Source: Anaerovoracaceae bacterium (GTDB lineage Bacteria; Bacillota; Clostridia; Peptostreptococcales; Anaerovoracaceae). Taken from it: 24,000 bases of DNA. The notes under the pieces were generated by a model. That model saw nothing but the letters and a program-made list of their open reading frames with translations. It ran no database searches and was not told the origin of the DNA. Both the position numbers and the translations under genes were made by a program. The stretch is taken from contig JAZLHF010000002.1 of the NCBI GenBank assembly GCA_045616685.1, positions 1 to 24,000 on the forward strand, read 5' to 3'. This document shows positions 521 to 18,851 of the stretch, piece after piece. Positions within the stretch are counted from its first letter, which is position 1. Each line of letters begins with the position of its first letter.

Positions 521-964
521 CTAAAAAGGCTCTTCAATTTCGTAGACTTCAATCAACCATTCATAGCAGGATTCATGAGATATTTCTGAGGTTTTAATAG
601 ATTTCAGCCTAAAGAAGCTTTTTTGAGGGGTAAAAGCTAATTTAAGCTTAATTAGATAGTTACTCTCGCCCTCATATGCTGACAAATTTACGATTCTAAC
701 TGTGCCATTATCCTTGCTAAAACAAGGCATATTTGAGACGGCGTAGTTGATCATCGTTTGAACACAACTTCTACATATATCAGCGTCAAATACTATTTTT
801 TCAGTTTCTTCATCATAGCAATTAAGCGCTGCATATGCTGTGCATTCTTCCGTTAAAGCCTGAAGATTTTGCTCAAGAAGATAATAATTTGTAAAATCAG
901 ACTGATAGGTTAATCCTAAAACAGATAAAATAATTATCCCAAACGATACTATTAAAGGCTTCAT
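521..964 (-). CDS. Tad-locus accessory protein (TadE/TadG-like pseudopilin candidate), N-terminal hydrophobic anchor
   Basis: 147-aa ORF with N-terminal hydrophobic segment MKPLIVSFGIIILSVLGLTY. Its ATG overlaps the stop of the upstream gene (ATGA at 961-964), indicating operon coupling. The family assignment comes from context only. Confidence 0.4.
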   Translation of the reverse strand: MKPLIVSFGIIILSVLGLTYQSDFTNYYLLEQNLQALTEECTAYAALNCYDEETEKIVFDADICRSCVQTMINYAVSNMPCFSKDNGTVRIVNLSAYEGESNYLIKLKLAFTPQKSFFRLKSIKTSEISHESCYEWLIEVYEIEEPF

Positions 965-1332
965 AAGAATTCACTCGCAACCGAGCTGTTAATCACATAT
1001 GAGTATTCATTATTTTCCTTCAAGCCAAGCATTGCCCTTTTTACTATAATTGTCACTGAGTAATGAATAATGCTTCCCCTTGAAAAATCACCAAAATGTT
1101 TAGCATCACTAGTACAAGTAATATTATTGTTAGCAATGTGTAGTTTATTATTTATTTCTCTCTTAAGACCATCACAATCAAAATAGCCCTCCTGTTTTGC
1201 CTTCTCTGCATACGAATAAACAATATCGTTTACGCCCATAAGTCTAAAGCTATTAATTTGGTCTAAACTAACTTGCATGGCCATAATTAATAGCAAAGGC
1301 AATACTGCACACATTACAATAAACTGTTCCAA
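961..1332 (-). CDS. TadE/DUF4320-like pilus accessory protein; native 5' end (ATG and coupling to upstream gene) displaced by island insertion
   Basis: 123-aa ORF with N-terminus (L)EQFIVMCAVLPLLLIMAMQ, a TadE-like hydrophobic N-terminus. In the integrated state only a TTG at 1332 with no Shine-Dalgarno is available. The matching original start (ATG AAG CAG TTT ATA GTA) lies 13.5 kb away at 14867, overlapping the stop of the small gene 14864-15016. Confidence 0.5.
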   Translation of the reverse strand: MEQFIVMCAVLPLLLIMAMQVSLDQINSFRLMGVNDIVYSYAEKAKQEGYFDCDGLKREINNKLHIANNNITCTSDAKHFGDFSRGSIIHYSVTIIVKRAMLGLKENNEYSYVINSSVASEFL

Positions 1333-1339
1333 ATGATAA
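1313..1339. repeat. Island junction (attL-type hybrid site): shared core ATTACAATAAACTG plus island-side arm
   Basis: 1313-1326 ATTACAATAAACTG matches 14848-14861 ATTACTATAAACTG (13/14, direct). 1318-1339 AATAAACTGTTCCAAATGATAA is the reverse complement of 14829-14850 TTATCATTTGAAACAGTCTATT (20/22). Confidence 0.65.
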
Positions 1340-1397
1340 CTTTACATTACTATGTAAATCGAAACTCTATTAAAGTACTTTTACAAAGTCCCAACGT

Positions 1398-4238
1398 TTA
1401 TAATTTGTACTTTCCAACTATTGAAGTAAGAAAAGTTTCAATTTCATATTTAGCATTATTTGGTATTTTCTTTTCTAATAGTTGCTTTGGAATAATTACT
1501 CCAGATTTTCCGTGTACATTCTTTCTAAATACAATTTTATGTTCCTCACGTCTCAACCTTTGAATAATATATCCTTGGCTTAACCATGCATCTGATATAC
1601 AGCACTCATCATAGTTGTATTTAATAGCTCTTTTGGGAATATCAGCATCCCATTTTTCTTTCCATTCCCCAGGAGCTGTATCGTACCAAAATGCATCAGT
1701 AAAATAAGCTGTCCAATCAAGATTATCACCAATTATTTCTTCTATTTTTTTAAAGGTTAAAGTTACAGGCGATTTATTACATGTTCTAAAGAATTCCCTT
1801 AGCAAGTAGTATGGATCATCTTTTGTATTTTCCTCACTTATATATGTTTCTAATAATCCTAAGGTATTAATTCCTTCACCGCCATACCATGCACTGCTAT
1901 CAACAGCAATATTTGAGCATCTTTTGTGTACATATGCTAAGTTTTCAGCATTTATACCCTTATCTGGCCTTATTTTTACAATAGCAAGTTCCTGATCAGG
2001 AAGCATCCTCTTTTCACATGCAAAGCAAATACCCATTTGTCTTCGCCAGATTGCTTTATACTTATCTCCGGACACTCTGTTTATTTCTCTCTTATACTCA
2101 AGCTCATCATAATAAGCTTTGTCTAAATAAGGATTTGCTTCTGAACTTGTTGGAATCTGTCTTATTGGAGCCATTTCAGTTAACGATATTACTTGATAAT
2201 CCCTATGGTCTGGATCTGAAAACGCATAACCATTACTTGTTTTTATCCAAAACTTCTTTCTGATTTTTTCTTGTTCTCGCCTTGGATACATTTTCTTTGT
2301 TTTTGTTAAAAGAAGAGCATTTACAGCAACGTCTATATGCCTAAATGCTTCATATGCATCACTAATTCTTTGATAGTAACCCCATCCATAAAGCTTTCTA
2401 TTAAGTCCTTGTATAAACGATTTAATTGAGCCATTGTTATTCAAAATATACTTTTCAAGATTGCTTTCGAATGTTTTAATGGCATCATCTGATGGTCTAC
2501 TTTTAATCTGTCCATTATTCTTTTCGAAATGGTACGAAAGAAAATCAAAACCATCTTTTAGGTTTACTATTTTGCTTTTTTCTTCAGAAAGCTTTAGGCC
2601 ACGAATTTCTAAGAAGTCTTTTAATATTTTAAGTATATTTTCCGCCCTTTCTTTTGAATCTGCAGAAATAACAATATCATCTGCGAATCTAACAACCTTA
2701 CCATCTGAATGAGCTTTCAATAATTTTTCATCAATATATTGTTCAAGCCCATCCAAAGTCATGTTTCCAATTACAGGCGAAATACTTGAACCTTGAGATA
2801 TTCCGGCATCAGTTTCTCTCATAACGCCATTTTCTAAAACTCCAGCAGTTAAAAATTCTTTAAGAACGTGCTTATCCATTAAAATATTCTTCATTATCCA
2901 GTCATGGTTTATTTCATCATAATAATGTCTCACGTCTCCGTAAATAGCCCAGTCTGGTTTATCATATCCATTGAACATTTCCTTAACACATTCATGTGCA
3001 TCAAATATTGATCGTCCTTCTCTAAATCCAAAGGAATGTTTATCAGCAGTGCTTTCAGCCAAAGGCTTTAATGCAAATGAATAAAGAGTTTCCATTGCTT
3101 TATCATATTGTGTTGCAACTTTTATTATTCTTACTTTTCCACCTTGCTCCCTTAATTTAAAATTATAAAATGGTCTATGATGATAATCTTCTGCAGTTAA
3201 AGATAATACCGCCTTCATCTTTTCCGCATCCGTATTCCATTTAACATTGTCTATTCCAGATCCAGAATTATTATTAATTACCTTTCTTACTGCTAGTAGT
3301 TTTGCTGGCATAGAATTTACAATAATTAATTGCCATTCCAGGCATTTATCCCAATGTTTTAAACTTGCTTCAGTAGCAAGTCTATGTTGCATATTACTAA
3401 GCTTTCTTTCCATGATTGCCCAGTTTGTACTTGTCCACATCTCTGCAGCATTCTCATCATTAAGTAAATTTTTTTCTTTTGGTTTCCAAAATTGAATTTC
3501 CATTTTTATCGGACAGTGATCACTGCCATATATTTTGTTAAGGTGTTCTACGTCCTTAACTTCTCCAATTAATTCTCTTGAAATTAAAAAATAATCAAGG
3601 CGCCAGCCTCGATTCTCCCACCTTTTATTTAGTCTATTTGACCACCATGTATATGTTCTTGCCTGAGTCGGATAGTACGCTCTATACACATCAATTAAAT
3701 TACATGTTTGAATAAGATCTTTCATCCCAGTTCTTGTATCTTGATCAAATTTTGCTTCATTAATTTGGTTACGCTGGTTTTCTGGGTATATATCTATGCT
3801 CTCAAGTGCAACATTAAAATCCCCACATATAATTACTGGTTTATCCAAAGCTAAAATGAAATTTTTTAAGCATTTATCCCATCTAATTCTTACATCTAGT
3901 CGTTCCAGACCACTTTCAGCATTTGGCACATACACATTTATGACGTAATACTCCTGAAATTCAAGGCATATCATTCTGCCTTCAGCATTTAAATCAGAAT
4001 CTCCTATATCTGTTGTCACGGCTAAAGCTTTTTCTTTAGATAATATTAATGTTCCTGAGTACCCTTTTTTACTTGTGCATAGATTCCAATATTCCTCATA
4101 TTCATCTAATCTTAGCTGTATCTTCGACCTAACTTCTTGGCAACAAAAAAAATCTGCATTTTGTTTTCTTACCACTTGCTCAAATCCTTTTAATTTGCAT
4201 GCTTTAATTCCATTAACATTCCAGGATACTATTTTCAT
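1398..4238 (-). CDS. Fusion protein: N-terminal exonuclease III/APE-type (EEP) nuclease + group-II-intron-like reverse transcriptase + maturase/thumb-like region + CxxC..HxxC knuckle + C-terminal unknown module
   Basis: 946-aa ORF with SD-like GGAAGTGAGG upstream of the ATG at 4238. EEP motifs occur in order: SWNVNG, FFCCQEV, NVYVPN, ICGDFNV, GWRLDYFLIS, GSDHCPI (aa 1-247). RT blocks: GSGIDNV, RPFYNFKLREQGGKVRIIKV, HSFGFREGRS, YGDVRHYYDEINHD, GISQGSSISPVIGN, VRFADDIVIS, RGLKLSEEKSKI, GFDFLSYHF. Thumb-like region: RKLYGWGYYQ. Knuckle: CFACEKR...YVHKRC. Confidence 0.85.
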   Translation of the reverse strand: MKIVSWNVNGIKACKLKGFEQVVRKQNADFFCCQEVRSKIQLRLDEYEEYWNLCTSKKGYSGTLILSKEKALAVTTDIGDSDLNAEGRMICLEFQEYYVINVYVPNAESGLERLDVRIRWDKCLKNFILALDKPVIICGDFNVALESIDIYPENQRNQINEAKFDQDTRTGMKDLIQTCNLIDVYRAYYPTQARTYTWWSNRLNKRWENRGWRLDYFLISRELIGEVKDVEHLNKIYGSDHCPIKMEIQFWKPKEKNLLNDENAAEMWTSTNWAIMERKLSNMQHRLATEASLKHWDKCLEWQLIIVNSMPAKLLAVRKVINNNSGSGIDNVKWNTDAEKMKAVLSLTAEDYHHRPFYNFKLREQGGKVRIIKVATQYDKAMETLYSFALKPLAESTADKHSFGFREGRSIFDAHECVKEMFNGYDKPDWAIYGDVRHYYDEINHDWIMKNILMDKHVLKEFLTAGVLENGVMRETDAGISQGSSISPVIGNMTLDGLEQYIDEKLLKAHSDGKVVRFADDIVISADSKERAENILKILKDFLEIRGLKLSEEKSKIVNLKDGFDFLSYHFEKNNGQIKSRPSDDAIKTFESNLEKYILNNNGSIKSFIQGLNRKLYGWGYYQRISDAYEAFRHIDVAVNALLLTKTKKMYPRREQEKIRKKFWIKTSNGYAFSDPDHRDYQVISLTEMAPIRQIPTSSEANPYLDKAYYDELEYKREINRVSGDKYKAIWRRQMGICFACEKRMLPDQELAIVKIRPDKGINAENLAYVHKRCSNIAVDSSAWYGGEGINTLGLLETYISEENTKDDPYYLLREFFRTCNKSPVTLTFKKIEEIIGDNLDWTAYFTDAFWYDTAPGEWKEKWDADIPKRAIKYNYDECCISDAWLSQGYIIQRLRREEHKIVFRKNVHGKSGVIIPKQLLEKKIPNNAKYEIETFLTSIVGKYKL

Positions 4239-4255
4239 GATGCCTCACTTCCATT

Positions 4256-4305
4256 AAAAAACGGCTTTAAAGAGCTGCAACTTTATCTGTAGCTCTACAA
4301 AGCCG
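4256..4305 (-). terminator. Strong hairpin + T6 tract (intrinsic-terminator-like) between recombinase gene and RT start
   Basis: Minus strand reads CGGCTTTGTAGAGCTACAGATAAAGTTGCAGCTCTTTAAAGCCG followed by TTTTTT. The outer 7-bp stem is CGGCTTT/AAAGCCG and the inner 6-bp stem is AGAGCT/AGCTCT. The tract ends 17 nt before the RT ATG. Confidence 0.55.
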
Positions 4306-4308
4306 ATC

Positions 4309-4338
4309 ATTTTATTAATAAATAAGGATGAATATCAA
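4309..4338 (-). promoter_or_regulatory. Candidate sigma-A-type promoter for the RT gene
   Basis: Minus strand has TTGATA (rc of 4333-4338), an 18-nt spacer, then TAAAAT (rc of 4309-4314). The predicted start falls inside the 5' arm of the hairpin at 4262-4305. Confidence 0.35.
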
Positions 4339-4480
4339 CTTTTACAGCTGATAGTAAATTCTTATCTTATTCTTAGTTGCCTCTGCAAATAATTGATTTA
4401 TTAATATTTCTTTCATAATAAAGCCAGATTCCTTCAAACTATAATACAAACATTAATGATAAATCTTATACTATTTGCTA

Positions 4481-6298
4481 CTATTGCTTTTGTGCCTTTG
4501 CAATTTTCTTATCAGCCTTAACCAAACCTTTAAGTTTTGTAATATATGTTGTAAACGTGTTTTCTATATCAGCATTGTAACCCGTTATACTTGAGAAACC
4601 ATCAGGATTAATCTTTTCAAATAGTAGCGCTTCTAATTTTGCGAAGATATTAAGCTTAAAATCAACAAGCTTCTTATCATCAAATACAACATATTCCAGC
4701 ATATTTAATATTTCTTCTGGGCTATAGGAATCCCTTGGCAACAAATCTTCAACAGCTTTATTGTACTCATCAAGTAAATCTTGCACATAATCATACAGAT
4801 TACTGTTATTTTTTAGTATTGCATCCTTTTGCTTTGTAAGAACTTCTTTTTCTTGGCCAAGTGCTTCTACTTTATCAACCATATCTCTGGAATTTGTTAA
4901 TAACAAAGTTTCAGCAGCATTATCCAGCATTATGTTTACTTGAGTTAATCTTTCATTTATTGGTCTTACTGCTTCCAGGGCATCTTCTTCAATGTTCATT
5001 TCAATTGCAGCAACAATGAATACAATCAAGCGTTCATATATTTCTTGCTTTGCATGCTCAATATCAGCATTAATAACCTTGCCATCCTCAAACATTTTCA
5101 GTTCATCATCAATATATTTTTCAGTAATGTTTTTAGAATGACACTTTTTTATTCCGTAAGTGTGCTTGGTAGAACAAAGATAATAACGTTCCCCTTGCTT
5201 GTTTTTTTGCGAATGGAAAAATGCCCCACATTTTGCACATCTAATTTTTTCTGCATATTTTGTAACGCCACAGTAAGCAATACCTTTTTTATTATTAACA
5301 TACTTTGTGTGGGCTTCCCTAACTTGTTGACACTTATCAAAAATTACAGGATCAACTATTGCAGGGATTCTATCACTTGGTTCACAAATATAATGCTCAC
5401 GTGTGCGCATGTAATTTGGTTTATTTTCAAATACATATCCCCTTGTATGCTTCTGCGGATTATTAAATCCCTTATACTTTTCATTGGTAATCTTCTTTGT
5501 TATATCTGAAGATACCCACTCTGTGCGTTTGGTACTATTTGGCAAATTGCTTGGACGTTTTCTATAGCCTTCTTCATTTAAAGTATTGGCAATTCTTCTA
5601 CATCCAAAGCCTTGCGAATATAATTCAAACATCCTTCTAATTGCAGCAGCTTCTTCTTCAACAATTTCTAAACTGTTTGTTTCTTTTACATATCTATACC
5701 CATAAAGCTGACCCGAAGCATATATTTTGCCCTTTTTTGCACCTTCTTCTCTACCAAATCTAACCTTTTGGCTACGGTCACGGCTTTCATTTTCATCAAA
5801 TGTTAAGAATATCTGGATAAATGGCAAGTCATCTGACAGTCTTGTAGATTTATTAATATTTAAAAAATATACAAATACATCTTTTTCCCTAAGCCTATTA
5901 ATAATGCTCATTACTTCCATGTTCCTTGCAAATCTGGAAGTATTCTTAACAATGATATAATCAAATTTAGGCTTACGTTTGGAAACAGTATAAGCTTCAC
6001 CTGTTTTTCTACCAGAATCTTTATCTTTAATTTCAATTACATCAAGCCCGGCATCTTTAATCATTTTTGTAAATTCCGGCCTATTCAACTTGGTTCCAGT
6101 AATACCACGCTCAGGATAGATCTTTATTACATCAGATGGATCTTCTTTAAGTTCACGCTCAAAATAAGATCTCTGATTTTCCAATGAATTAAGCTGCGAT
6201 TCTTCTGTTGTAGAAACTCTACAATAAGCAACTGCTTTTGGCCGCCTGCCAAACTGTTCTTCAAATCTTCTAAATTCTTCTTGTACGCCTGAATGCAT
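4481..6298 (-). CDS. Large serine recombinase (integrase of the island)
   Basis: 605 aa. N-terminal resolvase catalytic domain (AVAYCRVSTTEESQLNSLENQ, with the catalytic Ser in RVST). Recombinase domain (YGYRYVKETNSLEIVEEEAAAIRRMFELY). Zn-ribbon (CAKCGAFFHSQ...YYLCSTKHTYGIKKC). Long C-terminal coiled-coil-like tail. Confidence 0.9.
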   Translation of the reverse strand: MHSGVQEEFRRFEEQFGRRPKAVAYCRVSTTEESQLNSLENQRSYFERELKEDPSDVIKIYPERGITGTKLNRPEFTKMIKDAGLDVIEIKDKDSGRKTGEAYTVSKRKPKFDYIIVKNTSRFARNMEVMSIINRLREKDVFVYFLNINKSTRLSDDLPFIQIFLTFDENESRDRSQKVRFGREEGAKKGKIYASGQLYGYRYVKETNSLEIVEEEAAAIRRMFELYSQGFGCRRIANTLNEEGYRKRPSNLPNSTKRTEWVSSDITKKITNEKYKGFNNPQKHTRGYVFENKPNYMRTREHYICEPSDRIPAIVDPVIFDKCQQVREAHTKYVNNKKGIAYCGVTKYAEKIRCAKCGAFFHSQKNKQGERYYLCSTKHTYGIKKCHSKNITEKYIDDELKMFEDGKVINADIEHAKQEIYERLIVFIVAAIEMNIEEDALEAVRPINERLTQVNIMLDNAAETLLLTNSRDMVDKVEALGQEKEVLTKQKDAILKNNSNLYDYVQDLLDEYNKAVEDLLPRDSYSPEEILNMLEYVVFDDKKLVDFKLNIFAKLEALLFEKINPDGFSSITGYNADIENTFTTYITKLKGLVKADKKIAKAQKQ

Positions 6299-6376
6299 AT
6301 CAATTACTCCACTAACATAAGAAGTTGTTTAATTTACGTTTTTATTATACCAGAAAAATTAATTTGTGTAACCCGC

Positions 6377-6404
6377 TTACGAACTGTATATATCACGGCA
6401 TAAT
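6377..6404 (+). promoter_or_regulatory. Candidate promoter for the Zn-ribbon/resolvase operon
   Basis: TTACGA (6377-6382), 16-nt spacer, CATAAT (6399-6404). It shares AACTG after the -35 and CACGGCATAAT with the candidate promoter at 12147-12175 on the other strand. Confidence 0.35.
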
Positions 6405-6511
6405 GAAAAAGGTCTCAAAACCTACAAGTTATGGGCAAATTTTAATGCCAACGTAAAACCAAGTATTTTGGCAGTTCCAAAACATAGTTTCAAAAATAGA
6501 GGTTAAAAACA

Positions 6512-6694
6512 ATGAAATGTTGTATCTGTGGATGTGAGATTACACATCCGTTAATTAAAAATTATCTTGGTAATAACCCTTGCCCTGTTACCACAGATCC
6601 TAATAAACGCTGCTGCGACAAGTGCAATGCTGAAGTAGTTATTCCGGCAAGAATTTTGCTATATGAAAAGCAAAGAACTGGAGGCAAAAAATGA
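6512..6694 (+). CDS. Small Cys-rich (Zn-ribbon-like) protein, translationally coupled to resolvase
   Basis: 60 aa with CxxC (CICGC) and CCDKC pairs. AGAGG lies upstream of the ATG. Its stop overlaps the resolvase ATG (ATGA at 6691-6694). Confidence 0.5.
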
Positions 6695-7278
6695 TCTATG
6701 GATATGCCAGAGTCTCAACCAAAGGTCAAGCCAAAGATGGGAACTCTTTAATAGCCCAAGAGAATGCGCTTAAGAGAAATGGTGCAACAACTGTAATGTA
6801 TGAGAGTTTTACCGGAACCAAGTTGCACCGACCGGTTCTTGATGAACTTCTTAATAAGCTGCAGTCTGGGGACACTCTTATAGTTACTAAATTGGACCGT
6901 ATCGCACGAAATGCCAGAGATGGAATTGATATTATTAATGAAGTACTAAACAAGGGTTGTAGTATCCGAATTCTTAATATGGGGCTATTTGATAATTCCC
7001 CGTCTGGTAAGCTTATGAGAACTGTCATGCTTGCTTTTGCTGAATTTGAACGTGACATGATTGTGCAGCGCACTCAGGAAGGTAAAGAAATTGCAAGGCA
7101 AAATCCAAGCTTTAGAGAAGGCAGGCCCCGGAAGTTTAGAAATGAGCAGCTTGTTCACGCCGTAGAACTTTTTAATTCCGGGAAAACATACAAAGAAGTT
7201 GAAGCACTTACCGGAGTTTCCCGTAGCACCTTGTACAGATCTCTCTTAAATCAAGAAATCAAGGACGCTAAATTGTAG
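6691..7278 (+). CDS. Small serine recombinase (resolvase/invertase family)
   Basis: 195 aa. [13 protein letters not shown] catalytic motif, [20 protein letters not shown] and a C-terminal HTH ([10 protein letters not shown]). Confidence 0.9.
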
Positions 7279-7369
7279 TGGAAGAGGCAAATTATAGGCG
7301 ATTCTTGCAAGCAACCAATACTCTCATAGCCTTTTCCTTTGTATTACAGGGGCTTGTAATTAATCATAA

Positions 7370-7405
7370 GACGTCTGTCCAAAGCTGGGTAGACGTCATT
7401 TTTTT
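7370..7405 (+). terminator. Rho-independent terminator after resolvase
   Basis: GACGTCT (7370-7376), 14-nt loop, AGACGTC (7391-7397), followed by ATTTTTTT. Confidence 0.5.
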
Positions 7406-7418
7406 AGGAGAAACCACA

Positions 7419-7559
7419 ATGAAGGAAATTATACCATTCAGTCAGGAAGAACAAGAAGCCATTAAAGCAATTATGCTTGAATATCTTACCAACTGCCAAT
7501 TAGTAATCCTGTGCAGTACTGAACCCCACGGGTTTTATACACTCAAAAGAAAACATTGA
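7419..7559 (+). CDS. Small hypothetical protein (46 aa)
   Basis: ATG at 7419 is preceded by AGGAG (7406-7410). This is the internal start of the 7278-7559 track ORF, whose upstream part crosses the terminator hairpin. Confidence 0.3.
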   Translation: MKEIIPFSQEEQEAIKAIMLEYLTNCQLVILCSTEPHGFYTLKRKH

Positions 7560-7787
7560 ATGGATTTTATCCCAAGATTTGAAGAATTGCTTAAAATCTA
7601 CAACATTACAGAAGATAGAATCATTGAGTTCGTTGAAGCTGATTGCTGCACTCCATTTATCTGAAATCTTATTAATAATAATAGAATTCCATATTACAAT
7701 TCTTTAGATGAAGTAGATATTAATCTTTTATATTAAGCAATGACCTTGGCCAATGTGGTAAAATAATATAAATAATTAGGTGTTAAT

Positions 7788-9185
7788 ATGACTTCTGGAT
7801 ATAAAGAAAAAACGTTATTCAAATACTTGCTGTACTTATATATGGTGCTTTGCCAAAGGGGATTTAAGCCACCTTTTATTAATGTTGGGTTGGGCGATAC
7901 TAACTTGGAAAAGCAACTGTCAGTAAGTAGAAAAACACTAATTCAAGTTCTAACTCAATTAGGGATAATAGTTCGCAGTACAAAATCCTATGCCTATCAT
8001 AAGATTAATATTTCATATAAATATTTTATTAACATAGATATGTATTTAGAATGTTTTAATGAAATTGTTGCAACAAAAGATATTATTGGATTTTTAAAAG
8101 ATTTTCCTGCTGATGTTCCAAATACTAATATTCAATCATTAGTATTACTAAGCAAGAAGATATGCAAAACAAACTGGACAATACTAAATAAAGATCAGAA
8201 GATATTGCTGACAACAAAGGTAAACAACTTATTAAATAATACTATTATTTGCTTTTTCCTTGGAGATTCAAAATATGCAAATATATCAGACGTAACAATG
8301 CTTACTGCAGCTTTTGATGACAATCAGCCACAGTTTAAAATTAAAAAAACAACACTGGATTGTATTAAAAATAATACCAATAACAGTCTTAAGCCTTTTG
8401 TTGTTCATACAAAATATAACTGGACAGAAGATCAAGAAGCTTATTATATAAACTACTACAAAAAAATGTTGTCAGAAACTACAATAATGCAGAATCTGAC
8501 GCAGTCAGTCCAAGAAGTAAGAAGCCACGGAATTGCTGTAAATTGCAATATTCATGTCAGCCTTTCTAAGCTTAAAGCCGGGTATAAATTTAAAGTATCA
8601 TGTCGCCAGTATAACCCATACTGTTCTCTGGAAAAAGAAATTCGGACACGAAGCTTTACACAAGAAGGAATTACTGGAAATTATGATTTACACAGCGCAA
8701 TTTTTGCTGTAACAAGATTAATGAATACTGGGGCATTTGAACCTGATTGGGATATTAAATCTGAAGTGTTAAAGCTAAATCCTGAAACTATTGATGGTAT
8801 ATGTTTAACTAAAGATGACTTAAAGCCCTTACTTATGAGGATGTTTTTTAAAAAAACTGATGCTGATGCTTATAACCATTATAGATATGCCTTATTACAG
8901 GATAGTGAGTCAGGTTTACCTAATATAAGCAAAGAAACTTTTTATAATATACTTGATAAATGTGAGAAACTGACTGGTGGGGTAAAAGAATATTATCATA
9001 ATATTTTTGAATTAGAGTCAATTATAGAACTTAGAAGTGTAAAACGTATTGCTAAGCAAAATAACACAGTAAGAAATATCTATGACTGTTTCTACTTTAA
9101 ACCAGAAGAAATAACTCAAGAAGAAGTTAAAAAAATAGTAAAGGAAGAAGCAGCAAAACTATATGCTATAATGAAAATGGCATAA
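7788..9185 (+). CDS. Hypothetical protein, possible wHTH DNA-binding/replication-initiator-like protein
   Basis: 465-aa ORF. The N-terminal segment (LEKQLSVSRKTLIQVLTQLGIIV) looks like an HTH. It is followed by an AT-rich palindromic region. I recognised no catalytic motif, so the Rep-like role is inferred from context only. Confidence 0.6.
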   Translation: MTSGYKEKTLFKYLLYLYMVLCQRGFKPPFINVGLGDTNLEKQLSVSRKTLIQVLTQLGIIVRSTKSYAYHKINISYKYFINIDMYLECFNEIVATKDIIGFLKDFPADVPNTNIQSLVLLSKKICKTNWTILNKDQKILLTTKVNNLLNNTIICFFLGDSKYANISDVTMLTAAFDDNQPQFKIKKTTLDCIKNNTNNSLKPFVVHTKYNWTEDQEAYYINYYKKMLSETTIMQNLTQSVQEVRSHGIAVNCNIHVSLSKLKAGYKFKVSCRQYNPYCSLEKEIRTRSFTQEGITGNYDLHSAIFAVTRLMNTGAFEPDWDIKSEVLKLNPETIDGICLTKDDLKPLLMRMFFKKTDADAYNHYRYALLQDSESGLPNISKETFYNILDKCEKLTGGVKEYYHNIFELESIIELRSVKRIAKQNNTVRNIYDCFYFKPEEITQEEVKKIVKEEAAKLYAIMKMA

Positions 9186-9272
9186 ATTGGTAGAAAAATT
9201 CAGAAATGCCCACATTTGTGGCAAATATATATATATTTATTATATTTAAAAAAAAATATATAAATAATAATC

Positions 9273-9318
9273 AAAAAAATTTTGCAAAATTTTTTTACCC
9301 CCTTTTTTGCAAAATTTT
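9273..9318. repeat. Two copies of the palindrome TTTTGCAAAA (first embedded in a perfect 24-nt palindrome), 25 bp centre to centre
   Basis: 9273-9296 AAAAAAATTTTGCAAAATTTTTTT is a perfect palindrome. A second TTTTGCAAAATTTT lies at 9305-9318. An (AT)6 run lies at 9225-9236 just upstream. Confidence 0.6.
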
Positions 9319-9321
9319 ATT

Positions 9322-9362
9322 AAAAAAACACAGAGAATTTTTATAAAACTCTGTGCTTTTTA
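9322..9362. terminator. Bidirectional terminator between convergent genes
   Basis: A7 tract, CACAGAG (9329-9335), loop, CTCTGTG (9349-9355), then CTTTTT. It sits between the + gene ending at 9185 and the - gene ending at 9372. Confidence 0.55.
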
Positions 9363-9371
9363 TTTATATAA

Positions 9372-10469
9372 TTATTCTTCTTCACTATTAATATTCCAAA
9401 GATCAATTTGCCTTAATCCATCATCCACAATTTCTTTTTTTATCTTTGGCTTTTTAATTTTAAACCCATTCTTTTCATATTGCAGATATGAATAAACTTC
9501 ATCCATTTCTTCTTTACTAACGCAGCCCCTTTTCCACTCATCTAATCTGTATTGAACTTCTTTATCATTGATATAATCATTGTACTTTTCAATTTCACAT
9601 ATTTTTTCACATAATTTCACTGGCACAAAAAAGTATTCTTCCCTGCCAATTTTTACTGCATTCAATTTATACCATACAGATCTGGCATACCTATATACCC
9701 CTTTATTCTTCCCCATAATTACCACAATGTCATTATCACCAGTTCCTAATTGATACTTTTTTCTAACCTTATAAAAAGGTCCTTCCAGTCCTGCATTATC
9801 AAAAATAACCGGGGTATAAACTATGTCAACATAATCTGGAACACAATTTGATCTTTCATACCTGTATTTAGGCATCTCTATAAGATTTATATTATCCCTA
9901 TTTACATCTGTTATTGAGTAGCTATCATTTGTATCTATAAACTCTTTCTGTCCCTCTGATAAAAAAGCCCAACCATAATTAAAAGATTGAATTTGATTAT
10001 TAATCTGTTTAATTATTTTTTCTACAATGCTTTCAACAATTTCATCATCAGCTTCAAGTCCAGTAATCTCTTTATATTTCTCTACTGTAAGATCAGTTAA
10101 CTTGCAAACTCTCATTTTAGCAGGAATTGGAATAGATAACATAACCGTCACATATTCCTGATAGCTATATTTTGTGCTAAATGCATTGTCAAATCTCATT
10201 CCCCCTGATTCCATTTCTCCACCAATATATCTGTAAACTCCATTATAAATTCCTGCACAAGTGACAACAATAAAATTGTATTTAACAGAGCTCTGATATT
10301 TCAAATCTACAACGGCATGCAGGGCTACTTCCCCATTTTTAATTTTAATAACTGGTGTATATACAAAACTCCAATTAGTTGGTAAGTTTCTTACTCTTTT
10401 TGGCTGATATCCAGATACAAGTAATTTTACAGATTCAAAACCAGTATTTTTATATATTTTTGAAAGCAT
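9372..10469 (-). CDS. Hypothetical protein with internal tandem duplication (third gene of AAA-protease operon)
   Basis: ATG at 10469 with AAGGAG 7 nt upstream (the track starts at the TTG at 10475). Two ~45-aa blocks are repeated: VYTPVI...KYQ...IVV...GVYRY at aa 38-83 and 219-263. No family was recognised. Confidence 0.7.
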   Translation of the reverse strand: MLSKIYKNTGFESVKLLVSGYQPKRVRNLPTNWSFVYTPVIKIKNGEVALHAVVDLKYQSSVKYNFIVVTCAGIYNGVYRYIGGEMESGGMRFDNAFSTKYSYQEYVTVMLSIPIPAKMRVCKLTDLTVEKYKEITGLEADDEIVESIVEKIIKQINNQIQSFNYGWAFLSEGQKEFIDTNDSYSITDVNRDNINLIEMPKYRYERSNCVPDYVDIVYTPVIFDNAGLEGPFYKVRKKYQLGTGDNDIVVIMGKNKGVYRYARSVWYKLNAVKIGREEYFFVPVKLCEKICEIEKYNDYINDKEVQYRLDEWKRGCVSKEEMDEVYSYLQYEKNGFKIKKPKIKKEIVDDGLRQIDLWNINSEEE

Positions 10470-10524
10470 AAGCAAACTCCTTTTTTAATAATATAATTAT
10501 ATAAAAAAAGCTGCCAAGCTTCAA

Positions 10525-11835
10525 TTAATTTGGTCCCCTTAAAATGCAAGCTAAATCGGGCTGCAAAACAACCTTCTTTTTAAACAGCTCATCAGCAAGC
10601 CGATCCAATTTATCTCTGTTAGAAATTAACATTAACTTTGCTTGTTGGTAGAAACGTTCCATCTCACTTGCAACCATTGTTTCTTTTCTGTTAAGAAGTG
10701 CCTCTGATGATGCAGAACAAATTCCTTCCCAGTAGTTAAATCCCATGGCTGCATAATCATCAACAAATCTGGTTACAATAGCATAAGCCCTATGCAGATC
10801 ATTATTACAGCCTACATCTGGAACACCAAATACAATTTCAATTGCAGCTTTTCCGGCAAGTAATGTCACAACCCTGTTTTCCATTGATTTTTTATTATAA
10901 AAATAATATGGCTCTTGAGTATGGTTTGTCATGCCAGCTGGGACTTCAGGGTGTGGATTACAAACAGTAACTATATTAATTAACCCCGGTGTTAACAACT
11001 CACTAACAAGTGCATGTGCTGCCTCATGATAGCAAACATGTATTAAGTACGGATTATCATTTTCATTAAAAACTTCTGGATCACTATAAAGATACCTTAA
11101 ACAAGCTTTAATCATATCATCCATATCAATTGCTTCTTTGTCTTCAAAACCAGCAAATATACCGGCTTGATTAACCACTTCCTGAAGCTGAGCACATGAA
11201 CTGCCTTGCAAGATTCTTGCAATAAGCGGTGCATCAACATTTGAAACATATGGCAGCTTTGATAAATAATGTCCAACTATTGCTTCAACATCATTGCTTC
11301 TTGGTTTAGATATATAAAGCTGCTGTCCAAATCTACCAGCCCTAAGCAATGAGTCCGGCAAACATTCTAAAGAATTTGCTGTAGCAAGCACAAAGATATC
11401 TCTATCACCAATTTCATCTATGCATGTTTGAACAGTAATATATTCTTCAGCATTTGGATGCCTTCTGTCTGTATTAGCATATCTATCAAGATCATCAAGC
11501 AGAATTATACACTTGCCATTTTCTTTATAATAAGCCTTAGCTTCTTCAAATACTTGCTTTATATAATTTACAAACTCACCATCAGGCTTATCTTTTCTGC
11601 AAACAAAAACTTTCCTACCAAGTTCTTTTGCAATACTCTGTGCAATAACTGTTTTACCAACCCCTGGATCACCATGAAGCAAAAATGCCTTTGGTGCCTT
11701 AACCCCTAAAGCCTGATACTTTTCAGGATTATTCAACATATCACAGATATAATCAATTTCATTCTTTTCTTCTTCATACCCAATAATTTCATCAAAGTAT
11801 TTCAGCATAAAAGCCCCCATCATTCTTAAATCCAA
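10525..11835 (-). CDS. Soluble FtsH-like protein: AAA+ ATPase fused to M41-type zinc metalloprotease, no N-terminal transmembrane segments
   Basis: Walker A HGDPGVGKTV, Walker B IILLDDLD, second region of homology ATANSLECLPDSLLRAGRFGQQLYISKP, and HEXXH zinc site HEAAHAL. The FtsH-like lead-in YFDEIIGYEEEKNEI is present. The start is uncertain: TTG at 11835, or ATG at 11823, 11820 or 11808. Confidence 0.8.
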   Translation of the reverse strand: MDLRMMGAFMLKYFDEIIGYEEEKNEIDYICDMLNNPEKYQALGVKAPKAFLLHGDPGVGKTVIAQSIAKELGRKVFVCRKDKPDGEFVNYIKQVFEEAKAYYKENGKCIILLDDLDRYANTDRRHPNAEEYITVQTCIDEIGDRDIFVLATANSLECLPDSLLRAGRFGQQLYISKPRSNDVEAIVGHYLSKLPYVSNVDAPLIARILQGSSCAQLQEVVNQAGIFAGFEDKEAIDMDDMIKACLRYLYSDPEVFNENDNPYLIHVCYHEAAHALVSELLTPGLINIVTVCNPHPEVPAGMTNHTQEPYYFYNKKSMENRVVTLLAGKAAIEIVFGVPDVGCNNDLHRAYAIVTRFVDDYAAMGFNYWEGICSASSEALLNRKETMVASEMERFYQQAKLMLISNRDKLDRLADELFKKKVVLQPDLACILRGPN

Positions 11836-11837
11836 AA

Positions 11838-12116
11838 CTACTTGCCACTTTTGATATAGTCACGTTCTTTTATAAAAGCCTTCCCATTTTTGAACTCGTA
11901 GTAAGTTCTTAAAGCATTTTTTAAATCATTGTCTGCTCTGACATTTCCGGTATCAATCTGCTGCAGTGCACTAAACATCTGACTATCATCAGCAACAATT
12001 TCATCAGGATCTTTAACAAGCAATTTTTCAACTTTTACTAATCGGCACAATCTGCTGTTGGATGAGTTACTTGTGTATTTCTCATTCAAGTAATTCAAAA
12101 ATTCTGTTTTATCCAT
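11838..12116 (-). CDS. Small hypothetical protein (92 aa), first gene of AAA-protease operon
   Basis: ATG at 12116 with AAGGAG 6 nt upstream. Its stop lies 2 nt from the longest start of the AAA-protease ORF. No family was recognised. Confidence 0.55.
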   Translation of the reverse strand: MDKTEFLNYLNEKYTSNSSNSRLCRLVKVEKLLVKDPDEIVADDSQMFSALQQIDTGNVRADNDLKNALRTYYEFKNGKAFIKERDYIKSGK

Positions 12117-12146
12117 TTGGGGCTCCTTTCTTCTTAGCGTGCACAT

Positions 12147-12175
12147 ATTATGCCGTGTTTCAGGCAGTTTGCGAA
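12147..12175 (-). promoter_or_regulatory. Candidate promoter of the 92aa/AAA-protease/365aa operon
   Basis: Minus strand has TTCGCA (rc of 12170-12175), a 17-nt spacer, then CATAAT (rc of 12147-12152). It lies just downstream of the terminator hairpin at 12197-12222. Confidence 0.4.
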
Positions 12176-12196
12176 TGCCCTTTTTTCAAGCACGCA

Positions 12197-12222
12197 AAAA
12201 GGACTCATCTGGGAGTCCTTTT
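12197..12222 (-). terminator. Hairpin terminator downstream of the methyltransferase gene
   Basis: AAAAGGACTC / 6-nt loop / GAGTCCTTTT forms a perfect 10-bp inverted repeat. T-runs flank it on both strands. Confidence 0.5.
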
Positions 12223-12415
12223 ACTGTCCGTTAAGATATTTCTATTAAAATATCAGTTTTGTGCGACCACGGAGACAAAACAAGCCTTAATTCTTGTTAT
12301 AAACTAATTATTATAAATAGATGCTTAAAATTACAAATTCTTAAACTCATCAACACAAGCTTTGCAAAGATTTTCTCTAGAAAAACCTATTTCTTAGTTC
12401 TTTTTACAACAAAAT

Positions 12416-13402
12416 CTATTTATTTAAATTAATTGCTTTTATTATTTCTTGTGCAATTCTATTAATTACAGATACACACACACTGTTACCGGCTTGCTTA
12501 TAGAGTTTTGCATCACTTAAATCGTCCGGTAGTTTATATTTCTTTGGAAAACCCTGTGTATTAAAACATTCTTTTGGTGTCATTTTTCTAATACCATAAT
12601 CAGTTTTTATCAGGCAAACATTATGCCCACCTTCCCCCTGATTTGCTGTTAAAGTTGGCACCACACCGGATTTGTTTTTTCTAACATATTGGCGCCTCCA
12701 TTGGTAAACAGCACGATCATCATCCATAGCTTCTACCAATTTGTCATAAATATCACCCTTATATTTTCCTTGTGTATAATAATACTTGTCATCAATTTTA
12801 CTATGAAAATCTATAATATCCTCTAAAGATTTTGTGAGTTTTACAGGCTTAGGGAAATTAAAGCTCTTATTTGTCTCTTCATCAAGAAATCCAACTATAT
12901 AAATACGTTCTCTGTTTTGCGGAATATTACCATATTCCATAGCATTTAAAACCATATACTTTGGATTGTGATAGCCACGTTTTTCAAGTTCATCAATGAT
13001 TACTCTGAATGTATTCCCATTATCATGTCCCACCAGATTTTTCACATTTTCTAAAAATACTATCTGTGGCTTTTTATTCCCCTTTTCATCAATAATGCGC
13101 ATTAACTCAAAGAATAAAGTCCCCCGACCTTTTTCATCATCAAATCCTTTTCTATATCCTGCAACACTAAAAGCCTGACATGGAAACCCAGCAAGCATCA
13201 CATCAAAATCTGGAATCTCACTTGCTTTGACTTTATGTATATCTCTCACATCAACTTTTATATTAAAATTTTGTTCATATGTTTTTGCCGGAAATGCATC
13301 AAATTCATTAGCATAGACTGTTTGGAAAGCTTTGGTCATTTCAAACCCAAGATCAATTCCTCCAACTCCTGCAAAGAAAGATGCACATTTTAAATTATCC
13401 AT
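12416..13402 (-). CDS. DNA (cytosine-5)-methyltransferase
   Basis: Motif I FFAGVGGIDLGF, motif IV GFPCQAFSVAG, motif VI ENVKNL, motif VIII QNRERIY, TRD-proximal TLTANQGEGGHN and motif X YKQAGNSV. ATG at 13402 with GGAGG (rc of 13406-13410). The longer track start at 13477 runs through the promoter. Confidence 0.92.
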   Translation of the reverse strand: MDNLKCASFFAGVGGIDLGFEMTKAFQTVYANEFDAFPAKTYEQNFNIKVDVRDIHKVKASEIPDFDVMLAGFPCQAFSVAGYRKGFDDEKGRGTLFFELMRIIDEKGNKKPQIVFLENVKNLVGHDNGNTFRVIIDELEKRGYHNPKYMVLNAMEYGNIPQNRERIYIVGFLDEETNKSFNFPKPVKLTKSLEDIIDFHSKIDDKYYYTQGKYKGDIYDKLVEAMDDDRAVYQWRRQYVRKNKSGVVPTLTANQGEGGHNVCLIKTDYGIRKMTPKECFNTQGFPKKYKLPDDLSDAKLYKQAGNSVCVSVINRIAQEIIKAINLNK

Positions 13403-13435
13403 GATACCTCCTATATGTATATCACCATTTAGTAT

Positions 13436-13465
13436 ATTATATCGTAAAATCGCGGCGCGCTGCAA
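13436..13465 (-). promoter_or_regulatory. Candidate methyltransferase promoter with GC-rich spacer
   Basis: Minus strand has TTGCAG (rc of 13460-13465), the 18-nt spacer CGCGCCGCGATTTTACGA, then TATAAT (rc of 13436-13441). Confidence 0.45.
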
Positions 13466-13475
13466 TTCATTTCCC

Positions 13476-13506
13476 AAAATTAAACACGCGCTTTTTTATG
13501 CGCGTG
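13476..13506 (-). terminator. Hairpin terminator after the nuclease gene
   Basis: Minus strand has CACGCGC, loop ATAAAAAA, GCGCGTG, followed by TTTAATTTT. It starts 8 nt after the stop at 13514. Confidence 0.5.
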
Positions 13507-13513
13507 CTTAGTT

Positions 13514-14524
13514 CTACTGTTCTTCCAGAGCTTCACCTACTTCAGAAATAATGTTCCAGTTTTCTTTATATTCTGACAACTCAGTTAGTGGAACACTTTC
13601 TCTTCCGGCATCAACCCATTCATCAATCTTAGTTGTGGGTATAAGATAACAGATACCAAAACGCTTATCCACGGCTGCATAAATATCACAATCTTTAGAG
13701 GAAATAAACTTTCCACGATTTCTTGCTGCCGTTGGATCAATTCCAGCACCCCCACGGTCTCTATCTTTTAGTGCAATTGATGGCTGTGTCGTACTTGAAA
13801 TATCAGATAATATGCCTTTAATCTGAACTCTTAATAACCGGCCATTATAATCAATAAATGCATCATATCTACAAGACCTTACATCTACATTTGCACACAT
13901 AAATCCGGCAAGTATTGCTCTTGCAAGAAAAATGAACTGCGCAGCATCTCCCTCATTGGCAACCATGACACCAGTATTAATACTTGTCATATTCCTGACA
14001 AAGCCATTTGTTAAACCCAAAAACAATGAATCATCCAATAAGTGTCCAAGGCTTTTCTTAATATACGTTAATTCAGTATCATTTATGTCATCATCAGAAT
14101 ATTCATGGAAAGATAAGACATCATTAAAAACTAAATCTTTAAATCCAGTATTTGTAAAATATGTTTTCTTAACAGAATTAAGAATCATATCTTCATAATA
14201 ATTTCTAACATCCTTCCAGGCAAAAACTTTACTATTTGCATAGCTTTTAATTTCTCTTTCAATAGCAGCTTTTGAATTTCCTTCAATATCCCGCATATCA
14301 GCAGATAATTCATTAGGATTATTCTGTGCATACTCTTTAAATTTTTTGCTCAGATACGGTGTAATGTCTGTCTGCGTATATTGCGGATCGGCTTCCCTAA
14401 ATTCATTAGGGAATGCATTTATTAAATTTTTCGCTGTAAATCTTGTTGGATGATCATTAAATTCAACAATATTATCTGCAACAAATTGTTCTAAATCATC
14501 TTTATGTGTAATTACTATAGCCAT
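13514..14524 (-). CDS. PD-(D/E)XK nuclease-domain protein, probable type II restriction endonuclease partner of the C5-methyltransferase
   Basis: The C-terminal half carries a PD-(D/E)XK-like core, AAQFIFLARAILAGF...YDAFIDYNGRLLRVQIKG, then DIYAAVDKRFGICYLIP. It lies immediately upstream of the MTase on the same strand. ATG at 14524 (the track uses the TTG at 14542). Confidence 0.55.
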   Translation of the reverse strand: MAIVITHKDDLEQFVADNIVEFNDHPTRFTAKNLINAFPNEFREADPQYTQTDITPYLSKKFKEYAQNNPNELSADMRDIEGNSKAAIEREIKSYANSKVFAWKDVRNYYEDMILNSVKKTYFTNTGFKDLVFNDVLSFHEYSDDDINDTELTYIKKSLGHLLDDSLFLGLTNGFVRNMTSINTGVMVANEGDAAQFIFLARAILAGFMCANVDVRSCRYDAFIDYNGRLLRVQIKGILSDISSTTQPSIALKDRDRGGAGIDPTAARNRGKFISSKDCDIYAAVDKRFGICYLIPTTKIDEWVDAGRESVPLTELSEYKENWNIISEVGEALEEQ

Positions 14525-14582
14525 CTTTTCCACCACTGACAAACAAAAAATTGATTTGCCAATAGTATAACAGACGTGTAAC

Positions 14583-14783
14583 TTAATTTCCAGATGCTCT
14601 ATCTTTCATATTATTTACTTTAATAATTAACTGCCCATGTTTATATTGCACATCAATTGGAGTCCCTGGTATAAATCCAATGTTTTCAAGCCATCTTCCC
14701 TTCAATCTAATCATTGCAACAGGCTTGCAATGATAATCACTTGAAGTATATACCCGCATCTTATGTATACTATTATTTTCCAT
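14583..14783 (-). CDS. symE: SymE-family (AbrB-fold) type I toxin-like protein
   Basis: KPVAMIRLKGRWLENIGFIPGTPIDVQYKHGQLII matches the SymE signature (E. coli SymE: [33 protein letters not shown]). ATG at 14783 with AGAGG upstream. The track start at 14813 is the alternative. Confidence 0.75.
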   Translation of the reverse strand: MENNSIHKMRVYTSSDYHCKPVAMIRLKGRWLENIGFIPGTPIDVQYKHGQLIIKVNNMKDRASGN

Positions 14784-14828
14784 GTTCAACCTCTGTAATA
14801 ATTGAAATTTCAACTATTACTACTATTT

Positions 14829-14861
14829 TTATCATTTGAAACAGTCTATTACTATAAACTG
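14829..14861. repeat. Island junction (attR-type hybrid site): island-side arm plus shared core ATTACTATAAACTG
   Basis: See the 1313-1339 feature. The site is locally palindromic: CAGTCTAT-TACT-ATAAACTG. Confidence 0.65.
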
Positions 14862-14863
14862 CT

Positions 14864-15016
14864 TCATAGCTTGTTATACCTCATATCCCTCAATTCTACT
14901 TCTTTTTGCCATAAGTCCTGCATTGAATGTAGTACGCTGTCATCTTTAAAGATCAGGGTGTTAACAATACAAATTCCAAGTACTACGGATGCAACCAGAA
15001 CTATCAGCTGTTTCAT
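14864..15016 (-). CDS. Small hydrophobic protein (50 aa), paralog of 15020-15190; possible non-canonical Flp-like pilin
   Basis: Not in the ORF track (under 60 aa). ATG at 15016 with GGGGA upstream. Translation: MKQLIVLVASVVLGICIVNTLIFKDDSVLHSMQDLWQKEVELRDMRYNKL. Its TGA overlaps an ATG at 14865-14867 (ATGA) that opens the truncated MKQFIVIDCFK peptide. Confidence 0.45.
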   Translation of the reverse strand: MKQLIVLVASVVLGICIVNTLIFKDDSVLHSMQDLWQKEVELRDMRYNKL

Positions 15017-15019
15017 TTT

Positions 15020-15190
15020 TTAATCCCCAAAACCTTCAGCAATAGCTGCATCAAACGCTGTATCAACAGCAGTAACAGCCTCACCAACATTGTCGGCTAA
15101 AGTTGTTGCATTATCTCCTAAACCAATAACTACGCCACTAATTGAAATTCCAAGTATTACTGTAGCTACTAAAACCATCAATTGTTTCAT
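15020..15190 (-). CDS. Small hydrophobic protein (56 aa), possible non-canonical Flp-like pilin
   Basis: ATG at 15190 with AAAGGGGA upstream. Translation: MKQLMVLVATVILGISISGVVIGLGDNATTLADNVGEAVTAVDTAFDAAIAEGFGD. The longer track ORF (to 15265) overlaps the upstream gene. Confidence 0.5.
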   Translation of the reverse strand: MKQLMVLVATVILGISISGVVIGLGDNATTLADNVGEAVTAVDTAFDAAIAEGFGD

Positions 15191-15203
15191 TGAATTTCCC
15201 CTT

Positions 15204-15716: not shown

Positions 15717-15718
15717 TT

Positions 15719-18729: not shown

Positions 18730-18825
18730 TTAAAATCTCCATAATTCGTTAATATAGATTACATACGCTGCTACGGCCATAATTCCTAACCCAAGCAACC
18801 TTCTTAGCCATTTCACAATTAACAT
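18730..18825 (-). CDS. Tiny membrane peptide (31 aa) at head of tad operon
   Basis: ATG at 18825 with GGGAGA upstream. Translation: MLIVKWLRRLLGLGIMAVAAYVIYINELWRF. Its TAA directly abuts the next ATG. Below the ORF-track threshold. Confidence 0.3.
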   Translation of the reverse strand: MLIVKWLRRLLGLGIMAVAAYVIYINELWRF

Positions 18826-18851
18826 TTTCTCCCTGTAATATTTTTACATTT

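Follow-up and report, generated by a model that had tools for sequence, protein, structure and literature searches.

The question raised by this locus is what has separated the first codons of a small operon gene from the rest of it, and what the separation means for that gene. Here, we analysed a stretch of 24,000 nucleotides (positions 1 to 24,000, forward strand) of contig JAZLHF010000002.1 from an Anaerovoracaceae bacterium (GenBank assembly GCA_045616685.1), hereafter referred to as the window. Within it, a Tad-like operon on the minus strand is interrupted in its second-to-last gene, g1. The interrupting DNA is very probably an island of 13,535 bp, neither phage nor conjugative and loaded mostly with defence-type genes, which was put in by its own large serine recombinase (LSR) at the start of g1. 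LSR-mobilised islands that split genes are a well-known kind of element, and the case presented here is well supported but ordinary. The most interesting by-products of the analysis are an apparently undescribed family of proteins, in which an ExoIII nuclease is fused to a reverse transcriptase (RT), and an attL-like relic in a related bacterium (locus L003).

The operon appears to span from a promoter-like site (18879-18852) to a terminator (536-513). Three features define its interruption:

1318-14852, no strand: the integrated island, with homology to related loci breaking at 1331 and 14848, absent from L001/L002, L003, L004 and L015.

14832-14867, minus strand: the orphaned 5' stub of g1, consisting of the native Shine-Dalgarno sequence and ATG, MKQFIV, five island codons and a stop.

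521-1332, minus strand: the displaced last two operon genes, namely the remainder of g1, termed g1' (961-1332, starting with TTG-EQFIV or at an internal ATG, codon 7), and g2 (521-964).

The 50-aa gene at 14864-15016 (minus strand) ends in ATGA, and the overlapping ATG (14867-14865) opens a frame that reads MKQFIVIDCFK and then stops. At the other end of the island, the remainder of g1 forms an open reading frame (ORF, 961-1332) that opens with TTG GAA CAG TTT ATT GTA ATG TGT. Joining the host halves restores both the ATG and the translational coupling via ATGA, as stated in the preliminary description of this DNA, and the same arrangement is found in intact relatives. The following gene, g2, in turn overlaps g1 by ATGA and is followed by the operon terminator at 513-536.

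The same operon with an empty site was found on four contigs of related bacteria (L001/L002, L003, L004 and L015). When five related loci were compared to the window by blastn, one block of homology stopped at 14848 and the next began at 1331, and in each relative the two blocks share 19 nt, which correspond to the duplicated core. Nucleotide identity across the split-gene region amounts to 66-78% in the empty-site relatives. L001/L002 show 76-78% nucleotide identity and read GAGGTATAACGCACT ATG AAA CAG TTT ATT GTA ATG TGC GCA GTA TTG CC, and thus carry an intact g1 directly 3' of the 50-aa gene with the same ATGA overlap. In L003, L004 and L015, a gene for glycyl-tRNA synthetase is followed, with no island, by genes for proteins of 246, 456, 312, 170, ~58, 50, 120 and 140 aa. 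Employing the reconstructed 123-aa g1 protein as query, we obtained seven intact homologues with 36-86% identity, all of which (7/7) open with MKQF(I/M)V and go on with M/L-x-A-x-LPLLL. The intact homologues have the N-terminus of the reconstruction, MKQFIV-MCAVLPLLL. The exact products of g2 and g1' yielded no record elsewhere. The preliminary description had placed a serine-recombinase island in the 5' end of an operon gene and had predicted an empty-site allele in related genomes. Such an allele exists in L001/L002, L003, L004 and L015, with the break in synteny at the attachment core, and the empty sites, the N-termini of the homologues and the intact recombinase gene agree with the proposed island. 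An assembly artefact was considered and rejected: the repeat comprises just 14-19 nt, the host reading frames are kept at both junctions and the breaks coincide with a symmetric site of 46 bp.

The two junctions of the island are organised as follows:

1294-1339, minus strand: attL-type junction (P arm / GT / B' arm), with the P arm at 1318-1339, the crossover at 1316-1317 and the B' arm at 1294-1315.

14829-14874, minus strand: attR-type junction (B arm / GT / P' arm), with the B arm at 14853-14874, the crossover at 14851-14852 and the P' arm at 14829-14850.

We found the direct repeat reported earlier, ATTACAATAAACTG at 1313-1326 and ATTACTATAAACTG at 14848-14861, in place. The 14-nt repeat alone is not significant (~181 pairs with at least 13/14 matches are expected in an AT-rich 24-kb window). 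The island-side arms are: 1318-1339 and 14829-14850 are reverse complements at 20 of 22 positions, as previously noted, with a probability of ~6.5e-10 per pair for at least 20/22, a value reached by none of 2,000,000 random pairs. With up to three mismatches, the half-site consensus TTATCATTTGRAACAGTYTAT is confined to the two ends of the island, where it lies in inverted orientation, and shuffled sequences lead to an expectation of 0. Joining the island ends gives the palindromic 46-bp attP that had been proposed, in which 22-nt arms, complementary at 20/22 positions, surround a central GT (in gene orientation TTATCATTTGGAACAGTTTATT-GT-AATAGACTGTTTCAAATGATAA). In the same orientation, the junctions read ...TTATCATTTGGAACAGTTTATT-GT-AATGTGTGCAGTATTGCC (P/B') and ...ACAAGCTATGAAGCAGTTTATA-GT-AATAGACTGTTTCAAATGATAA (B/P'), and the synthetic junction sequences are GCTATGAAGCAGTTTATAGTAATGTGTGCAGTATTGCC for attB and TTATCATTTGGAACAGTTTATTGTAATAGACTGTTTCAAATGATAA for attP. 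The reconstructed attB covers codons 1-7 of g1 and is present intact in the relatives.

For the polarity of crossover, serine recombinases need a non-palindromic dinucleotide. At this locus, that role falls to GT, as read on the minus strand (plus-strand AC at 1316-1317 and 14851-14852), corresponding to nucleotides 16-17 of g1. Immediately 5' of this GT, the two copies of the repeat show their only mismatch, T/A, where the B arm has the host letter and the P arm that of the island; to the right of the mismatch, both share the core GTAAT. Because of this distribution of the mismatch, the crossover can be placed within GTAAT, which is consistent with the centre of symmetry. With the crossover dinucleotide counted once, the island has a length of 13,535 bp (window 1318-14852). 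The P arm resembles the B arm at 13 of 22 positions, mostly near the core.

The candidate enzyme is encoded within the island:

4481-6298, minus strand: the 605-aa LSR, with resolvase, recombinase and zinc-ribbon domains.

All three domains (PF00239, PF07508 and PF13408) were detected above their cut-offs, and the catalytic residues Y25/R27/S29/R122/R125 as well as the zinc-ribbon residues C354/C357/C375/C386 are invariant across 16 homologues. The 605-aa protein was hence rightly regarded as an intact serine recombinase: it is full length and keeps all domains and all invariant residues. At the level of sequence, the analysis demonstrates the insertion, its exact boundaries, the symmetry of attP, the reconstruction of the intact gene and an intact LSR gene. 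In the mechanism that we propose, the LSR would recombine the 46-bp attP with the attB in codons 1-7 of g1, and strands would be exchanged at the non-palindromic GT. Together with an undetected directionality factor, it would also perform an excision that restores g1 precisely. Integration by an LSR is reported to require just the integrase and two sites of ~40-50 bp (PMC12286644).

The best NCBIfam match of the LSR is a weak one to CcrB, and its sole sequence match in the PDB is 3G13, a recombinase of a C. difficile conjugative transposon. SCCmec-type elements (CcrA/CcrB), Tn4451 (TnpX) and Tn5397 (TndX) are likewise non-phage islands of 10-60 kb that are moved by LSRs and carry accessory cargo. 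In contrast to SCCmec, the window island has a single LSR rather than a CcrAB pair, and the matches to CcrB and 3G13 are far below the family cut-offs. It targets the start of a pilin-like gene instead of rlmH, and its cargo comprises defence rather than resistance genes. With this island, an uncultured low-GC bacterium offers a case in which defence cargo interrupts a surface-appendage operon. The new LSR, which is cleanly delimited and has a predicted pair of attP and attB sites, could serve as a reagent for genome engineering.

Several observations weigh against integration by the island's own LSR. The empty sites come from different species-level lineages, none of them from the same strain, and no sister island was found. 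Among metagenome, viral and genome contigs, the P' arm as an exact 24-mer had no match, nor did the P arm as a degenerate 23-mer in metagenome or viral contigs, and the contig collections scanned yielded neither an attP nor a circular junction. The closest LSR homologues are only 38-39% identical, and the island holds no recognisable recombination directionality factor. It is from the anatomy of the sites that we infer the action of the LSR on the reconstructed attP and attB. Moreover, the reading frames of g1 and g2 have both remained intact, which would not be expected after a long silence.

The locus L003 adds to the picture. Its g1 is 61% identical to that of the window, and an extra 3.66 kb (10789-14448) follow the intact g1-g2 pair. 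This segment contains a gene for a 951-aa SLH/Big_2 surface protein and then a junction at 13938-13975, ATATCATTTGGAGCAGTTTATCGT|TATGTGTGCAATTTTGCC, in which a homologue of the P arm (21/24 positions) is fused to a B' arm in an attL-like manner. Behind the junction lies a second copy of g1-g2, 98-99% identical to the first and internally deleted. Neither a P' arm nor an LSR was found in the 20 kb of L003. Because L003 carries this attL-like relic, a related element has used the same attB in another lineage. The simplest scheme to account for the intact upstream copy would be Campbell-type recombination of an aberrantly excised circle.

What, then, does the insertion mean for g1 and g2? Two features at the adjoining end of the island have to be taken into account:

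1398-4238, minus strand: the gene for a 946-aa ExoIII-RT fusion, with an ExoIII/APE1 nuclease (aa 1-250), an RT (aa ~266-775) and a DUF7662-containing C-terminal domain.

4262-4305, minus strand: a terminator-like hairpin and U-tract (z = -3.9), separated by 17 nt from the start codon of the RT gene downstream.

Read from the junctions, g1 and g2 have lost their link to the operon promoter, the native Shine-Dalgarno sequence and the native ATG. The latter two (GAGGT and ATG) stay with the 11-codon stub at attR, and at attL the P arm leaves an in-frame TTG-EQFIV ORF with no recognisable Shine-Dalgarno sequence. Between the RT stop codon (1398) and position 1332, no canonical terminator was found. 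Expression of g1 and g2 would presumably be reduced or would rely on read-through from the island RT gene. The preliminary description held that integration 'uncouples or inactivates' the genes at 521-1332; the uncoupling from promoter, Shine-Dalgarno sequence and ATG stands, and inactivation is one possibility beside weak expression and expression by read-through.

A possible, though doubtful, alternative to such a disruption is an integration that preserves the gene. The P arm would then provide a surrogate start (TTG-EQFIV), transcription through the co-oriented RT gene would drive g1 and g2, and the pilus genes would remain functional. This fits to an attL ORF that is in frame and keeps five of the six N-terminal residues, to the lack of a canonical terminator between 1398 and 1332 and to the intactness of g1 and g2. 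In addition, the P arms of the window and L003 differ just at synonymous third positions of the EQFIV frame (GAA/GAG and ATT/ATC), which is a hint that the attL ORF is translated. However, neither the TTG nor the internal ATG is preceded by a Shine-Dalgarno sequence, the change of Lys2 to Glu removes the only positive charge before the hydrophobic helix, and the strong terminator-like hairpin directly precedes the RT gene. Internal deletions have degraded the attL-linked copy of L003, and the intact one resides in the operon; because of this decay, the attL-linked copy may be dispensable.

Less promising, and in our view unlikely, is that the island is an immobile relic of one integration, which lost the ability to excise and left behind a fixed gene disruption. 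No second copy or circular form turned up in the searched collections, and L003 illustrates that such insertions can decay in place. On the other hand, the LSR is full length with all invariant residues, the arms are still symmetric at 20/22 positions and all large ORFs of the island are intact.

We consider it rather improbable that the island acts as a reversible switch, in which excision would rebuild g1, re-couple g1 and g2 and toggle pilus assembly. Elements of this type have precedents. In Listeria, an A118-like prophage (phi10403S) in comK is a serine-integrase element that splits a gene, and its reversible excision constitutes the 'active lysogeny' switch. The window island differs from phi10403S in having no phage genes, and no excised form was found. 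Further precedents are SPbeta (SprA/SprB) in spsM and the skin elements (SpoIVCA; skinCd) in sigK of Bacillus and Clostridioides, of which precise excision rebuilds the gene (PMC5499854, PMC5025042). Like these, the window island is an LSR-borne element within a coding sequence and has a short core. Excision at the GT would give back the exact conserved N-terminus and the ATGA coupling, the LSR and both attachment sites are intact, and g1 and g2 are undecayed. In contrast, SPbeta and skin are (defective) prophages with developmentally programmed excision and a known directionality factor, none of which was found for the window island, and the window insertion sits in the first seven codons, where the island arm leaves a near-complete ORF. 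Neither an excised form, nor an attB allele of the same lineage, nor a directionality factor turned up in the searched collections. The island is devoid of a phage or developmental regulatory module and its cargo is typical of selfish defence islands. Moreover, a recent insertion or read-through expression would explain the intact g1 and g2 equally well. If excision did take place, gene-splitting 'switch' elements would extend from sporulation and competence to pilus genes.

That the ExoIII-RT itself made the insertion by nick-primed reverse transcription, or that its gene is a group II intron, with the recombinase as bystander, is barely credible: the RT gene is terminal, with 65 nt between it and the junction, and its product combines APE and RT domains, but searches at both gathering and relaxed thresholds detected no RNA of a group II intron in the window or in five homologous loci, the ORF is flanked by just 243 nt upstream and 65 nt downstream, related RTs also occur in unrelated elements with tyrosine integrases, and the junctions are symmetric and of serine-recombinase type instead of showing a target-site duplication or poly(A) tail, an anatomy that appears to effectively refute the proposal.

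The N-terminal domain of the ExoIII-RT matches TIGR00633 with 228 bits, above cut-off, and APE1/ExoIII structures in the PDB with E-values of 1e-59 to 1e-54. The RT part is of the group-II-intron type with RVT_N, RVT_1, GIIM and a Cys/His motif, and matches the T. elongatus group IIB intron maturase over nearly its whole length (6ME0_C residues 21-543, E = 5e-79). The DD pair of the RT motif (D520/D521, FADD in the 946-aa protein) and the CxxC...HxxC motif are invariant. The best 120 of 376 matches are all full-length fusions of ~945 aa, and the family comprises at least 120 full-length clusters at 90% identity. They originate from metagenomes and genomes, including Bengtsoniella and a Rikenellaceae metagenome-assembled genome. 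The family occurs in elements of both Bacillota and Bacteroidota. Among 72,556 plasmids and 50,697 phage records, the full-length fusion was absent.

In every context examined, the ExoIII-RT is cargo of an integrative element and usually lies within a few kb of the integrase end. In L005 it adjoins two LSRs, and in L009-L014 the order is RT, MmeI restriction-modification (R-M) gene, Xis, tyrosine integrase and tRNA. L016 carries it beside an integrase and insertion sequence fragments, and in L017/L018 it is found inside an integrative and conjugative element with genes for a type IV coupling protein, Toprim and R-M. The preliminary description had called it an oddity that the RT gene occupies the island end. 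Because its homologues recur near integrase ends, the position beside the attachment site is ordinary for cargo and the oddity dissolves. We infer that the ExoIII-RT is cargo and stands outside the integration machinery.

Other identities were tried for this gene and rejected. A group II intron had no Rfam match in the window, either at gathering threshold or at E <= 1, and none in the five homologous loci, and the flanks of the ORF are too short for ribozyme domains. A mobile unit made up of the RT alone dropped out as well: L005/L006 and L007/L008 are the same loci, with no RT-only unit, and L014 and L009 share a larger module that begins 257 bp upstream of the RT. Though the APE+RT architecture is present, a retrotransposon resembling long interspersed nuclear elements (LINEs) was also dismissed, the gene being single-copy cargo with flanks that vary between loci. 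Alignments of the upstream and downstream flanks of four loci revealed no conservation that would point to a conserved non-coding RNA.

The C-terminal region of the RT protein (aa 777-946) consists of two sub-modules (~aa 25-90 and 100-170 of the query), which also form the end of ~690-aa RVT_N+RVT_1+GIIM proteins that have no ExoIII domain, and which are repeated in tandem in some long proteins or make up small proteins of 70-200 aa by themselves. The order of the APE and RT domains is the same as in LINE ORF2p, and the RT region is like that of group II intron-encoded proteins and domesticated group II-like (G2L) RTs. In contrast to the latter, the 946-aa protein has no intron RNA and is encoded by a single-copy cargo gene, and compared with both group II intron proteins and LINE ORF2p it possesses the DUF7662 module as an extra, shared with RTs that lack ExoIII. 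In the searched literature, we came across no description of a bacterial ExoIII-RT fusion or of DUF7662. A bolder reading, which we put forward as a speculation with low odds of being right, is that ExoIII-RT-DUF7662 proteins form an undescribed, widespread class of mobile-element RTs, working in a nick-primed manner without intron RNA and serving element maintenance, defence or anti-defence. The existence of bacterial proteins in which APE and RT are fused is relevant to the question of where LINE-type enzymes come from, and to RT-based defence.

The hairpin at 4262-4305 is probably the terminator of the LSR gene; alternatively, it would be an attenuator-type leader for the RT. A promoter-like site (4338-4309) is located upstream of it.

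The remainder of the island consists of the following features:

6512-7559, plus strand: a small serine resolvase/invertase module (195 aa at 6691-7278), flanked by ORFs of 60 and 93 aa.

7788-9185, plus strand: an ORF of 465 aa, function unassigned, with no family, plasmid or phage match.

9372-11835, minus strand: an ORF of 367 aa and a 436-aa soluble FtsH-like AAA+/M41 protease with a HEAAH motif, of which the ATPase resembles the anti-phage ATPases IetA/IteA.

11838-12146, minus strand: an ORF of 102 aa, function unassigned.

12416-14542, minus strand: a putative type II R-M pair, with a C5 methyltransferase (12416-13477) and a 342-aa putative PD-(D/E)XK nuclease (13514-14542).

14583-14813, minus strand: a SymE-family toxin gene, which adjoins the P' arm.

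All large ORFs are intact, and no phage structural, relaxase or conjugation genes were found among the island genes. The C5 methyltransferase is clear (PF00145, 5e-84; PADLOC MTase_II, 7e-117), and the 342-aa ORF beside it gave a weak PD-(D/E)XK match (E = 0.011). The FtsH-like protein has no membrane anchor and, together with its 367-aa partner, is a candidate for a two-gene defence system. In a megablast search, the whole island had no match in plasmid and phage collections. From its cargo and the lack of DNA-level matches in plasmids and phages, we therefore read it as an LSR-mobilised genomic island of the defence type. The 465-aa ORF also yielded no match by tblastn. The resolvase/invertase module is transcribed divergently from the LSR gene and may have been acquired separately; no invertible segment was identified for it in window 6300-7600. 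This part of the window has a G+C content of 0.40, compared to ~0.32 for the rest of the island.

Finally, the interrupted operon itself has to be named with care. Its upstream part comprises:

14864-18879, minus strand: a promoter-like site (18852-18879) and genes for a protein of 246 aa resembling MinD/ParA, an ATPase of 457 aa resembling TadA/VirB11, two membrane proteins (312 and 170 aa) and two small proteins of pilin-like type (81 and 50 aa).

The matches of the 457-aa ATPase are below cut-off (T2SSE, E = 0.003; TadA-family TIGR03819, E = 7e-8), and the MinD/ParA likeness of the 246-aa protein is weak and sub-threshold. No Pfam or NCBIfam matches to TadB/C, Flp or TadE were obtained in the operon, and a scan of genome contigs with the TadA-like ATPase found no relative. 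The structural model of a g1 homologue consists of a 47-residue N-terminal helix and a three-stranded sheet (predicted local distance difference test, pLDDT, 85); its topology is pilin-like, and Foldseek detected no significant fold match in the PDB. Support for the 'tad' label given earlier is weak and consists of the sub-threshold TadA/VirB11 and MinD/ParA matches and the pilin-like small proteins with their paralogous hydrophobic N-termini. We regard 'Tad-like pilus/secretion operon' as a reasonable but unproven label for these genes.

Four small proteins of the operon (81, 50, 123 and 147 aa) begin alike, with MK(Q/P)(L/F)(I/M)V and then a hydrophobic helix, and the genes for the 50-aa and 81-aa proteins (window 14864-15265, minus strand) share a 52-nt repeat with 77% identity. 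Judged from the shared N-termini and the repeat, the operon contains several paralogous sequences that come near to attB in their letters, and the target of the LSR is one of them. Inside the island, beside the P' arm, positions 14799-14821 are identical at 21 of 23 nucleotides to 15139-15161, where the N-terminus of the 81-aa protein is encoded (blastn E = 0.01 in a small search space), a match that could be due to chance or a trace of captured host sequence.

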